Position numbers and translations under genes: made by a program. Source: Escherichia coli (lineage in GTDB: Bacteria; Pseudomonadota; Gammaproteobacteria; Enterobacterales; Enterobacteriaceae). Taken from it: DNA of 64,000 bases. The notes beneath the pieces were generated by a model that saw nothing but the letters and a program-made list of their open reading frames with translations, was not told where the DNA came from and ran no database searches. Positions 41,184 to 48,755 of this stretch are shown here, in pieces. The stretch's first letter is position 1. The number at the start of each line of letters is the position of its first letter. The stretch is taken from the NCBI RefSeq assembly GCF_001677475.2, contig NZ_CP015229.1; one strand, written 5' to 3'.

Positions 41184-43178
41184 ATGAGTTTTGCAGCTAC
41201 AGATTATCCATCCGGCGCACTAACTGGATCGGGTACACATAACGTGACTTTGAGCGGCAGCGCAGTTCCTGATGGAATGTTACTGTTTGCAAGCTTAGGG
41301 GGTACAGAAACAGTAGGGGAACTATTTACTTATTCTATTAAATTAAAAACTCCTGACATCCTGAACCTGGGCTATGTTTCCCCCGCAGCCAACCTACAGC
41401 TCAAACCGATGGTGGGCAAAGATCTGTGCGTCAATATCGAATTGGATGGCGGCGGAAAACGTTACATCAGCGGGCTGGTGACGGCGGCACGCGTGGCTGG
41501 TCATCAAGGACGTTCGGTGGTGTATGAACTGCGGCTCGAACCGTGGTTAAAAATACTGACCCACACTAGTGACTACAAAGCGTTTCAAAATAAAAACGTG
41601 GTGGAGATCCTGGATGAGGTACTGGATGAGTACCCCTGGCCAGTGGAAAAACGACTGGTGGAAAATTATCCGACTCGCGCCTGGCAGGTGCAGTACGGTG
41701 AAACAGATTTCGATTTTATTCAGCGCCTGATGCAGGAGTGGGGTATCTACTGGTGGTTTGAGCACAGCGAGAACAGTCACACGTTAGTGCTGGCTGATGC
41801 CATTAATGTCCACAAGGCATGCGCAGATTCGCCGCTGGTGTGTTATTACCAGAAAGGGCTGAAACTGGACAAGGAGTTTATCCATACCATCACAGCAAAT
41901 GAAAGTCTGCGCAGCGGACAGTGGGTGCTGAATGATTTCGACTTTATGAAGCCGCGTTCACTGCTGAAGAGCACCGTGGCTAATCCGCGTGAAACCGGCC
42001 TTGCTGAATATGAGCACTACGAATGGCCGGGAGATTACTTCACAAAGAGTGAAGGTGAAATGCTGACACGCATTCGCATGGAAGAACAGCGTAGCCCCGG
42101 TAGTCGGGTACAGGGCAGCGGCAATATTCGTACCCTGATAACGGGTTTTACCTTCACCCTGGAAAACTATCCGACAGCCGAAGTGAACCGGGAATATCTG
42201 CTGGTACAGACCACGCTATTTATACAGGACAATGCGCAACACAGCGGCCAGGAGCAGCATTTCTCTTACTCAACCAGCTTTGAACTGCATCCCACCAGCG
42301 AAGTTTACCGCCCACAACGAACCCTGTGCAAACCCCACACTAAAGGCCCGCAGAGCGCAATCGTCACCGGCCCGGCAGGGCAGGAAATCTGGACAGATAA
42401 ATATGGACGGGTGAAAGTTCAGTTTGGCTGGGATCGTTACGGTAAGAATGACGAAAATAGTTCCTGCTGGGTCCGTGTCAGTTATCCGTGGGCGGGTAAA
42501 GGATTCGGTGGCATTCAGATCCCGCGCATTGGTCAGGAAGTACTGGTGGATTTCAAAAACGGTGATCCGGATTTACCGATAATTGTTGGGCGTACCTACA
42601 ACCAGGACACCATGCCACCGTGGGGACTACCGGGCGCAGCGACGCAAAGCGGATTTTACAGTCACACTATCGGCGGCGGCCCAACCAATGCCAACGCACT
42701 ACGTTTTGAGGATAAACCTGGCGGTGAAGAGGTCTGGCTACATGCCGAAAAAGATCAGCGGATTGAAGTAAATAATAATGAAAGCCACTGGGTGGGCAAT
42801 AATCGCCTTAAAGTCATTGATAAAACAGAAACAGCGATAATTGGTGAGGAACGTTCTCTTACAGTTCAGATGGATGATACCTCCCTTGCCGGACAAAACA
42901 AAACGATTCAGGCCGTACAGAATTTACGCCTTGCTGCGGGAGATTCCATAATTCTTAGTTGTGGGAACACTATCCTGCAAATGACCAGTGACGGAATATT
43001 TAATATAACCTGTAAGAATTTTAATATTACTGCAACAGAAAATGGAAAGATAAATACACAATCAGGTCAGCTTGATTTAAATATGAATAACAGGGCGGCA
43101 GATATACTTCCGCCTGGAACATCGGAAAAAACAGCCCTTCAATTGGCGATAGACGTCGCCTTCATGACTAAAAAATAA
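41184..43178 (+). CDS. vgrG: Type VI secretion system spike protein VgrG
   Basis: 664 aa with conserved VgrG gp27/gp5-like core (e.g. [38 protein letters not shown]); AT-rich promoter region upstream. Confidence 0.85.
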
Positions 43179-43228
43179 ACAAAAACCATCATTAAATAAT
43201 TTATTAATTTAAAAGGACTCATATCATT

Positions 43229-43681
43229 ATGACGGAGTATTATCTCAATGAAACTGTTGTAAGTTTTTCCGGGAATATTATTCAGGACAGTACTATTAAT
43301 ATGCTTCGCCTCAGCGATCCCGACGCTGCACTCATTATCAGCCGGGGCCAGATGCAGGAAGGAGACGAATTAGCCTCCCAGATTGAACAGCAAATGAAAA
43401 AACTGGAGAAACAGGTAAAGGATCTTCACTACACGCCCGTTCAGGTAACACGGGTGGGGATTAATGACGGTGAAGAAGGACTGGAAATACAGAGCCAGTT
43501 TCTCCGGGGTAACGAGCAGGTGTACCAGTGTCAGGTGGCATTTGTATTGCCGGGTGAGCGGGTCATGATGGCCTTCACCTACGCCCGAACCACACCGCTG
43601 ACCCCGGCAGATATGACGCGCTGGGCTGAAATTAAAAAGAATCTGCGCTTCAGGATGCGGCAGGAAGCCGGGACGAATTAA
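43229..43681 (+). CDS. DUF1795 (EagR-like) effector chaperone
   Basis: 150 aa between vgrG and a prePAAR-Rhs gene; typical position and size. Confidence 0.6.
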   Translation: MTEYYLNETVVSFSGNIIQDSTINMLRLSDPDAALIISRGQMQEGDELASQIEQQMKKLEKQVKDLHYTPVQVTRVGINDGEEGLEIQSQFLRGNEQVYQCQVAFVLPGERVMMAFTYARTTPLTPADMTRWAEIKKNLRFRMRQEAGTN

Positions 43682-48415: not shown

Positions 48416-48425
48416 GATTATTAAT

Positions 48426-48755
48426 ATGAATTTGCAAGAAATAAAAAATAAAGTCTTATCTCTTCCTACAATAATGAATTTAGCGGATGAGCTATTAATA
48501 ATTGACGAGTTGATGACTATTGATGTTAATGATTTGATTGAAAATCAAGATATCTTTAAATCTATTATAGATGCATTAGAATTATCACATATTGATTCTG
48601 GGTTTATGGAGTTAACAGAAGAAAATGAGAGTTCATTTATAAACTTCTACAAATGGCTTAATAAAACAAATAATAAATTTAACTTGGGAATAAATGCTAA
48701 CACTATAGATAGTTTTAGTTTGACTGTTGAAGATGTGAAAAAAATGATGTTATAG
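48426..48755 (+). CDS. Putative Rhs immunity protein
   Basis: 109 aa, strongly AT-rich, ATG 11 nt after the rhs stop (ORF-track start 48327 is an in-frame upstream extension inside rhs). Confidence 0.55.
   Translation: MNLQEIKNKVLSLPTIMNLADELLIIDELMTIDVNDLIENQDIFKSIIDALELSHIDSGFMELTEENESSFINFYKWLNKTNNKFNLGINANTIDSFSLTVEDVKKMML

Follow-up and report, generated by a model that had tools for sequence, protein, structure and literature searches.

Is the row of genes at the ansP-pptA locus of one Escherichia coli genome a working cargo of a type VI secretion system (T6SS), or what is left of one? The question arises from a stretch of 64,000 nucleotides of contig NZ_CP015229.1 (RefSeq assembly GCF_001677475.2), called the window below, in which a vgrG gene is followed by an eag chaperone gene, an rhs gene and a small AT-rich gene. 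An earlier note on this DNA, made from the letters alone, had described these genes as a complete T6SS cargo island that looked intact and functional. The analysis indicates that this hotspot of the E. coli chromosome, ansP-pptA (rhsE), very probably carries an accessory or "orphan" cargo operon of a T6SS here, with genes for an alternative VgrG, an Eag chaperone, a class I prePAAR-PAAR-Rhs effector and a cytoplasmic immunity protein. Modules of this kind have already been described in E. coli; the rare nuclease-like toxin-immunity pair is the new part.

Organization of the Operon

All four genes are located on the plus strand, with intergenic gaps of 50, 18 (from the eag stop at 43681 to the rhs ATG at 43700) and 10 nt, and a strong bidirectional hairpin terminator with T-runs on both strands closes the operon (Table 1). 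The four open reading frames (ORFs), about 7.4 kb in total and including the 4.7-kb rhs, contain neither stops nor frameshifts. The rhs core has a GC content of 0.58-0.67, which drops to 0.27-0.43 over the final 400 nt of the gene and in the immunity gene.

Hidden Markov model (HMM) searches, comparisons with sequences of solved structures in the PDB and comparisons between genomes bore out the identities that the earlier note had given to vgrG, the DUF1795 gene, the prePAAR-rhs gene and the immunity gene, and the ORF positions are exactly as claimed there. The description of the island as complete stands for the four genes, which are intact, but the island itself starts further upstream and runs on to ~52372 downstream.

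In detail, VgrG is matched by TIGR03361 with 557.4 bits (cut-off 186.35) and by TIGR01646 with 418.2 bits (cut-off 121.8), and the precomputed Pfam assignments of an identical protein include Phage_GPD, Phage_base_V and Gp5_trimer_C. A Shine-Dalgarno sequence, AAGGA, is found directly 5′ of the vgrG ATG. The product of the following gene carries PF08786 (DcrB, formerly DUF1795) over amino acids (aa) 19-137 with an E value of 1.1e-18, and the members of its 90% cluster bear the name "DUF1795 domain-containing protein". The position of this gene is also that of an Eag chaperone, directly upstream of an effector with a prePAAR motif and a transmembrane domain (TMD).

Architecture of the Rhs Effector

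The best solved relative of the Rhs protein is Rhs1 of P. laumondii (PDB 7q97), which it matches over aa 287-1441 with 1052 bits; other Rhs structures from T6SSs, Tse15 and Tse5, are matched as well. The prePAAR motif, YD repeats, DPxGL boundary and variable tail that the earlier note had read from the translation were all found. The first of these, defined as AARxxDxxxH (PMC7773334), is present as AARQGDALLH and aligns with AAREGDPIKH of chain 7pq5_L, with whose TMD the following transmembrane (TM) region also aligns. This region (aa 17-73, with a Kyte-Doolittle 19-residue window of at least 1.5) is the one strong hydrophobic region, and a moderately hydrophobic postPAAR segment follows at aa ~352-395, like that of Rhs1. 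The tetrapeptide PAAR occurs at aa 113 and 306, and both halves of the predicted split PAAR domain align to the P. laumondii Rhs1/Tre23 chains. The stretch between the halves (44054-44569, aa ~119-290) holds an insert of ~165 aa, with a highly charged coiled stretch rich in Q, E and A and a hydrophobic segment. The insert is ~90 aa longer than the corresponding one of Rhs1; some of its parts align to a single stretch of Rhs1 two times over and may stem from an internal duplication.

The PAAR region is followed by a DUF6531 match (E 1.9e-18) and by a putative N-terminal cleavage site. H395 and P396, followed by VNAATG, A403, K404, YLA and D408DDD411, match in sequence the site at which RhsA of P. 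protegens is cut, between H304 and P305, with A312, K313 and D318-320 at the corresponding offsets (PMC8765631). In both proteins the His-Pro pair has A and K at +7 and +8, whereas the run of aspartates extends from +12 to +15 here (D408-411) and from +13 to +15 in RhsA. In the PDB, the cage chain of Tse5 (8cp6_B) opens with PVNPMLGSK, which aligns here.

The shell is represented by ~14 Pfam RHS_repeat matches over aa 671-1068 and 1151-1280 and by 11 stretches of TIGR01643 (216 bits), and the Rhs-associated core by TIGR03696 (100 bits, cut-off 32.5) and PF03527. At the end of the core, DPIGL at aa 1411 is followed after 17 residues by PVSWIDPLGL, in which DPLGL begins at aa 1433 and ends at aa 1437; the spacing is identical to that of P. 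laumondii Rhs1. In Rhs1, the Asp of the second DPLGL is catalytic and the toxin begins right after the Leu (Jurenas et al. 2021, PMC8636562). The consensus of the C-terminal site of RhsA, PxxxxDPxG[W/L/F] (PMC8765631), also fits PVSWIDPLGL. The equivalog model of the RHS element core, NF041261, scored 327.6 bits where at least 2000 are needed, which places the protein outside the classical RhsA-D lineage.

Exchange of the Toxin-Immunity Cassette

The C-terminal boundary was confirmed by comparison with strain VCSW5. At the same locus this strain has an Rhs with 10 substitutions relative to that of the window in aa 1-1437 (99% identity); past this point the two proteins are essentially unrelated, beginning with aa 1438. 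By this comparison, DPLGL is the exact junction at which recombination has joined the toxin-immunity cassette to a conserved Rhs body.

The reciprocal case is provided by strain GF131. Among 5,426 complete E. coli genomes it is the only one with the toxin-immunity DNA, whereas the vgrG type is found in 234 of them. In GF131 the toxin tip and the immunity gene (97% DNA identity) are located at the rhsC locus, between ybfA and ybgA (L002 7651-12706), where there is no vgrG and only a truncated eag remnant, and the TMD region of that Rhs (aa 28-90) differs from the one of the window. The same tip behind a different TMD region is an indication that the N-terminal chaperone-binding modules and the C-terminal toxins recombine independently. 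With the same tip on another Rhs N-terminus in GF131 and the same body with another tip in VCSW5, the locus is a clean natural case of cassette exchange at DPLGL, and the known T6SS Rhs effectors of E. coli gain one more exchangeable toxin-immunity cassette.

The Toxin Tip and Its Likely Immunity Protein

A word-indexed search for the 134-aa tip (Rhs aa 1438-1571) retrieved 19 relatives, from Escherichia marmotae, Snodgrassella, Pseudomonas, Azoarcus and others, two of which carry a signal peptide in place of the Rhs body. A profile of 13 sequences extended the family to 79 proteins at E ≤ 0.001 among 1.84 billion representatives (one per 50%-identity cluster). In the full-length matches of the profile the domain is C-terminal, and many other matches are short fragments. 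The family is marked by the motifs HGHG, FPxGGF, SNxAxGPT and AHIPL. In an alignment of 38 sequences G64, H77 and H126 are invariant, the two histidines being aa 1514 and 1563 of the Rhs, and no acidic residue is invariant.

The link to a described family comes from Ntox30 (PF15532), which matches 16 of these 38 profile-retrieved relatives (best E 4e-17). The aligned motifs [R/K/W/H]xH and [T/A]HIP, present as HGH ... AHIP in the Rhs tip, correspond to the Ntox30 signature "RxH, R, THIP" (Zhang et al. 2012). On these alignments the tip is most likely a divergent nuclease of the Ntox30 superfamily that would use His77 and His126. The AlphaFold2 model of the domain has a predicted local distance difference test (pLDDT) score of 94.6. 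Among its neighbors in the AlphaFold Database (AFDB) the domain is borne by Rhs, PT-HINT, PT-TG, LXG and CdiA-type proteins, and one neighbor is annotated "Bacterial toxin 30". As modelled, the domain probably, though not securely, shares the fold of PT7(Bc) (PDB 8owu), a metal-dependent DNase with a "novel fold" solved in 2024 (Nachmias et al.).

Similarly to the tip described here, Ntox30 and PT7(Bc) are C-terminal polymorphic-toxin domains of Rhs, LXG and CdiA-type proteins. The signature xxH ... [TA]HIP with two invariant histidines links it to Ntox30. Unlike Ntox30, the tip has ~55 extra residues at the N-terminus, the conserved positions W11, L29-V30 and D39, and the HGHG, FPxGGF and SNxAxGPT set. 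It is possible, as a tentative suggestion, that the 134-aa tip and its 109-aa partner form a distinct toxin-immunity family which bridges Ntox30 and PT7. If so, Ntox30 and PT7 would be one superfamily and the activity of one of them would be mis-assigned.

Stand-alone forms of the toxin domain also exist. They are 168-173 aa long (L009 1523-2386, on a metagenome contig; P0010 and P0012), have an N-terminus that resembles a signal peptide and are followed by an immunity homologue, the pair being situated between a gene for an ABC-transporter ATPase and a ComEC-like gene. From their sequences, these forms are possibly a Sec-exported deployment of the toxin family independent of Rhs.

The gene downstream of rhs is likely to encode the cognate immunity protein of the toxin, in the cytoplasm, as far as sequence and neighborhood tell. 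Homologues of the 109-aa protein occur directly 3′ of remote homologues of the toxin, 60% and 49% identical to it, on two unrelated metagenome contigs (L009, 36% identity, E 5e-25; L008, 31%, E 3e-7), and conservation of the pair on distant contigs is the expected signature of a toxin with its immunity protein. The protein of GF131 is 94% identical. The 109-aa protein has an isoelectric point (pI) of 4.2, compared with 8.8 in the case of the toxin. It lacks a signal peptide, and none of Pfam, NCBIfam and PADLOC matched it. The small AT-rich immunity-like ORF of the earlier note is present, but its likely start is the ATG at 48426 and not that of the 142-aa ORF; this ATG, 10 nt past the rhs stop, agrees with the RefSeq start in GF131 and with the N-termini of the homologues. 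The 142-aa ORF with a GTG start (48327-48755) was rejected, as it overlaps rhs by 89 nt and both the homologues and the RefSeq annotation favor the ATG.

Proposed Mode of Action and Related Systems

The proposed mode of action follows the solved prototypes, P. laumondii Rhs1 and P. protegens RhsA, whose hallmarks are all recognizable in the sequence. In the producer cell an Eag dimer would shield the N-terminal TM helices of the effector (aa 17-73), while the prePAAR motif (aa 7-16) would complete the split PAAR fold, and this fold would cap the divergent C-terminal tip of this VgrG. A T6SS core encoded elsewhere would then fire the VgrG-Rhs complex into a neighboring Gram-negative cell, where the TM helices may aid the passage of the toxin across the target inner membrane. 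The Rhs cage is predicted to cleave itself between H395 and P396 and after DPLGL1437, by which the 134-aa toxin would be freed, and in sister cells the acidic 109-aa protein encoded downstream would neutralise it. Current models of T6SS effector loading are not challenged by the locus.

A wholly different mode of action, in which the Rhs works without a T6SS, either displayed on the cell surface, released in some other way or directed against eukaryotes, and the linkage to vgrG and eag is historical, is very improbable. Some Rhs/YD proteins do use other export routes, and the toxin domain is also found on LXG proteins (type VII secretion system), CdiA-type proteins and proteins with signal peptides. 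However, the prePAAR motif, the predicted PAAR domain, the Eag partner and the upstream VgrG are specific to T6SSs and are all intact here, the Rhs has no signal peptide, and a gene for cytoplasmic immunity next to it points to bacteria as the target.

The T6SS cargo operon proposed here has counterparts in several described systems. The VgrGO1-EagR-Rhs-CT-CTI modules of E. coli (Ma et al. 2017, via PMC6730261 and 10.1101/2024.03.05.583533) come from the same species and have the same order vgrG-eagR-PAAR-Rhs-immunity, as described in the two latter sources. According to these, the modules also have, as here, a swappable C-terminal toxin, with orphan toxin/immunity remnants and ISAs1 downstream. 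Delivery of the Rhs-CT is stated there to need VgrGO1, EagR and a T6SS, the two sources disagreeing on whether T6SS1 or T6SS2 is the delivering cluster. The toxin of the window differs from the Rhs-CT types named in these two sources (MPTase4, REase-3, Toxin_55, deaminase, AHH and JAB); the review PMC6730261 counts Rhs-CT1 to CT10, not all of which it names.

In the Rhs1-EagR-VgrG complex of P. laumondii (PMC8636562) the effector is laid out likewise, with prePAAR, TMD1, split PAAR, postPAAR helix region, plug and YD shell in this order before two DPLGL-type motifs 17 aa apart. Its toxin Tre23 is an ADP-ribosyltransferase unrelated to the tip described here, and Rhs1 is part of a studied cluster whereas this locus is an orphan island. 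With RhsA-EagR1-VgrG1 of P. protegens (PMC7773334, PMC8765631) the locus shares the AARxxDxxxH motif, an apparently single N-terminal TMD region, the Rhs cocoon and the PxxxxDPxG[LWF] site. It differs from RhsA in its toxin domain and, owing to the insert in the PAAR region, in a length of 1571 aa against the ~1200 aa typical of class I prePAAR effectors.

Distribution among Strains and the K-12 Locus

The locus of the window is the ansP-pptA (rhsE) locus of E. coli. At this site K-12 lacks vgrG and has the rhsE pseudogene together with ydcD and H-repeat genes; homologues of the vgrG, eag, lipoprotein and immunity genes were not found there. The earlier note had called the K-12 rhs element next to pptA-narV a degraded remnant and the locus here intact-looking. 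The rhsE pseudogene does indeed occupy the same chromosomal site, but it is not a remnant of this island: a decayed copy of this rhs was considered and rejected, as the rhsE remnant shows no DNA similarity to it and only 30-37% protein identity, and belongs to a different Rhs lineage.

Hits to vgrG at ~4 Mb in some genomes were considered as a second vgrG locus. In EC9, the one such genome inspected, the hit proved to be the same ansP locus under different numbering, and on this one case the second locus was rejected.

Evidence against a Working Operon and the Alternatives

Several results weigh against the reading of the locus as a T6SS cargo operon with a nuclease-like toxin. They concern the domains of the effector and its chaperone, the family of the toxin, and the expression and delivery of the cargo.

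In the domain searches which the earlier note had named as a check, VgrG, DUF1795 and the RHS repeats were clearly matched, but PAAR was significant for its C-terminal half only. The Pfam PAAR_motif covers aa 291-321 with an E value of 5.3e-5 (model positions 39-69/70) and aa 97-118 with just 4.8, T6SS_PAAR_dom of NCBIfam scored 18 bits against a cut-off of 124, and the insert between the halves is unusual. The support for a PAAR domain, as far as it comes from sequence, is partial. The match of the Eag protein to the solved SciW structures (6xrb, 6xrr and 9mvg) is weak as well (E ~0.003).

For the toxin, Pfam and NCBIfam gave no direct family match, and Ntox30 was not reached even at E ≤ 10. 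Foldseek of the model against the PDB returned nothing significant and did not recover PT7, and searches with the A2 and A3 profiles and with a bona fide Ntox30 member as queries gave no sequence link from the toxin family to 8owu or the PDB. DNA and RNA are both kept as substrates, because Ntox30 is a predicted RNase and PT7 a metal-dependent DNase. It is somewhat doubtful, if worth considering, that the toxin is a metal-independent RNase with two histidines and an RNase A-like mechanism, rather than a metal-dependent DNase like PT7. Such an RNase would agree with the only family link at the level of sequence, namely to Ntox30, which was predicted to be a metal-independent two-histidine endo-RNase (Zhang et al. 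2012), with the invariance of exactly two histidines and of no acidic residue across the 38 relatives, and with the failure of Foldseek to support the match to PT7. The activity of Ntox30 is, however, itself a prediction, and the AFDB neighbors include LXG proteins and proteins annotated "Transposase protein", in which they resemble the PT7 family. Cleavage of DNA is slightly favored over cleavage of RNA. A compact and confidently modelled toxin domain gives the locus a modest practical value, as it could settle whether toxins of the Ntox30 type are DNases or RNases.

With respect to expression, a sigma-70 scan of the region before vgrG (40963-41183) gave no promoter-like site on the plus strand. 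The earlier note had credited the operon with a promoter of its own in this region; its AT-richness is all that was found of it. The start of transcription may lie 5′ of the metallopeptidase gene that begins the island, at a point now displaced by a Mu-like prophage, or at a promoter that is non-consensus or controlled by H-NS. The prophage lies 1 kb upstream of vgrG and truncates the first gene of the island, and could have changed transcription. With respect to delivery, no T6SS core gene was found within the window.

These last results raise the alternative that the operon is intact but silent or stranded, either because a compatible T6SS core is lacking or because it is not transcribed, through silencing of the AT-rich leader by H-NS or through disruption by the prophage. 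The operon would then be at most an immunity reservoir and a substrate for recombination. This alternative is considered unlikely, though it has much to draw on: the window without core genes, the scan without a promoter, the prophage cutting the first island gene, and the decay that is common at the locus. For instance, vgrG of VCSW5 (L001 9982-11976) has an internal stop at codon 516, absent from the copy of the window, the metallopeptidase gene of EC9 (L011 18890-19420) has an internal stop, some genomes, such as E2348/69, retain only the first 939 nt (47%) of vgrG, and K-12 has a pseudogene. On the other hand, four ORFs over ~7.4 kb free of stops and frameshifts argue for recent selection, and the catalytic and processing motifs are all intact.

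A further point against stranded cargo comes from E. coli AR_0077, which served as a proxy for the presence of a T6SS core. Its vgrG at the ansP-pptA locus and that of the window share 99.0% DNA identity. This strain combines an intact island of the same type with a T6SS cluster next to yafV, which contains tssJ, tssK, tssL, tssM, tagF, Tae4/Tai and VgrG-Eag-Rhs. The orphan VgrG and the VgrG of the AR_0077 core cluster are 76% identical over aa 12-613, being near-identical through the gp27/gp5 regions and diverging toward the tip. Identity between the two Eag proteins is as low as 23%. As read from these sequences, the pattern fits an alternative set of spike, chaperone and effector that a machine of the AR_0077 type could use.

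Flanking Regions of the Operon

Table 1. Coordinates of the operon, the domains of its Rhs effector and the neighboring features in the window
Feature	Position	Strand	Description or basis
Metallopeptidase (HExxH) effector remnant, 5′-truncated	40204-40609	+	ORF 40208-40609, 133 aa; 176 aa elsewhere
Lipoprotein gene, candidate periplasmic immunity protein for the metallopeptidase	40606-40962	+	118 aa; lipobox, neighborhood
AT-rich intergenic region before vgrG	40963-41183		GC ~0.31
vgrG	41184-43178	+	664 aa; tssI spike protein, intact
eag chaperone gene	43229-43681	+	150 aa; DUF1795/DcrB
rhs	43700-48415	+	1571 aa; class I prePAAR Rhs effector, intact
prePAAR motif AARQGDALLH, aa 7-16	43718-43747	+	Regex match
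N-terminal TM region, predicted Eag binding site, aa 17-73	43748-43918	+	Hydropathy
Predicted split PAAR domain, aa 97-118 and 291-321	43988-44662	+	Pfam; alignment to P. laumondii Rhs1
Putative N-terminal autoproteolysis motif and DUF6531 plug, aa 395-473	44882-45118	+	DUF6531; comparison with RhsA
YD/RHS-repeat shell, ~aa 671-1280	45710-47539	+	RHS_repeat, TIGR01643
Rhs-associated core/aspartyl autoprotease plug, aa 1360-1437	47777-48010	+	TIGR03696, PF03527
C-terminal toxin domain, aa 1438-1571	48011-48415	+	Divergent, Ntox30-related, PT7-like predicted nuclease
Likely immunity gene	48426-48755	+	109 aa from ATG; acidic
Hairpin terminator, bidirectional	48765-48792		10-11 bp stem, 6 GC pairs
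SymE-family type I toxin gene	48801-49130	-	NF010128 E 5.5e-14, below cut-off; RefSeq orthologue annotation
isrA-family small RNA, antisense to symE	48931-49059	+	Rfam RF01385, 115 bits (gathering score 51)
ISAs1-family (H-repeat) transposase gene, intact	49576-50712	+	NF033564, 416 bits (cut-off 70)
Orphan toxin C-terminal fragment	50737-50922	+	ORF, 61 aa
Orphan immunity-like gene	50919-51239	+	ORF, 106 aa, pI 4.7; overlaps the toxin fragment
Second SymE-like gene	51319-51648	-	ORF
Second isrA copy	51449-51577	+	Rfam, 104 bits
Truncated ISAs1 copy	51890-52372	+	ORF, 160 aa

The region directly upstream of the leader (40204-40962) is a candidate for a second T6SS effector-immunity pair, judged by its sequence and neighborhood, with an effector that is truncated at its 5′ end. 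The full-length metallopeptidase gene, intact in two other genomes (L003 and L001), is the first island gene in genomes free of the prophage, and its product matches the effector domain of P. aeruginosa VgrG2b (PDB 6h56; E 2e-20) with HEMMH aligned. The remnant of the window keeps HEMMH and has lost its first 42 codons to the prophage. RefSeq often labels this effector "type IV secretion protein Rhs", which is misleading. The adjacent lipoprotein has the lipobox MKRFFLFFFLSGC and scored 30.9 bits with NF045617, "putative T6SS immunity periplasmic lipoprotein", under the cut-off of 43; its gene is kept beside the metallopeptidase effector in other genomes. The pair resembles the P. aeruginosa VgrG2b metallopeptidase and its lipoprotein immunity PA0261 (PMC6899460), where an HExxH effector is likewise followed by a lipoprotein gene, except that the metallopeptidase is a free-standing gene here and an extension of VgrG in P. 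aeruginosa.

The Mu-like transposable prophage occupies ~35 kb of the window (~5155-40203). Its left side contains a repressor gene and A-like (721 aa) and B-like (317 aa) transposition genes, its middle the tail and baseplate genes of a myovirus, and its right side Com, Mom and a Mu-type right end (...CGTTTTTCGTGCGCCGCTTCA), which abuts at 40203, 125 nt inside the metallopeptidase gene. The phages D108 and SfMu and Mu-like phages of Yersinia are 84-86% identical to it over only 10-15% of its length. The plus-strand cluster at 10-40 kb was considered as a T6SS core and rejected, being this prophage (baseplate V, virion morphogenesis, Com and Mom genes). The metallopeptidase effector clipped by the prophage is an example of the erosion or rewiring of islands of this sort by mobile elements.

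To the left of the prophage, where the chromosome should continue toward ansP, positions 1-5152 are instead DNA of a P1-like phage-plasmid (sit, pmgB, tub, pmgC), 96-99% identical to plasmids of ~97 kb and P1-like phages. The flanks of the prophage (junctions at ~5153 and 40203) have no common 5-bp target duplication, with ATATA/… on the left and GCGAT on the right. The mismatched flanks suggest a Mu-mediated plasmid-chromosome cointegrate or rearrangement, or a chimera of the assembly.

Downstream of the terminator, the intact ISAs1 transposase gene is 96.8% identical in DNA to ydcC of K-12. The orphan toxin-immunity module that follows it had no DNA match in the complete E. coli genomes searched and no family matches, and its exact 106-aa immunity protein is known from 33 contigs only. 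This module is bracketed by a tandem, diverged duplication of symE with the 5′ region of ISAs1 (48780-52372), seen as direct repeats D1-D3 with a spacing of 2.3-2.5 kb and 84-100% identity. Such a tandem duplication is the usual footprint of successive displacement of Rhs tips. Each symE/isrA pair is positioned after an rhs immunity gene, and both isrA matches are full-length; symE with its antisense RNA looks like a repeated unit that travels with the Rhs tips.

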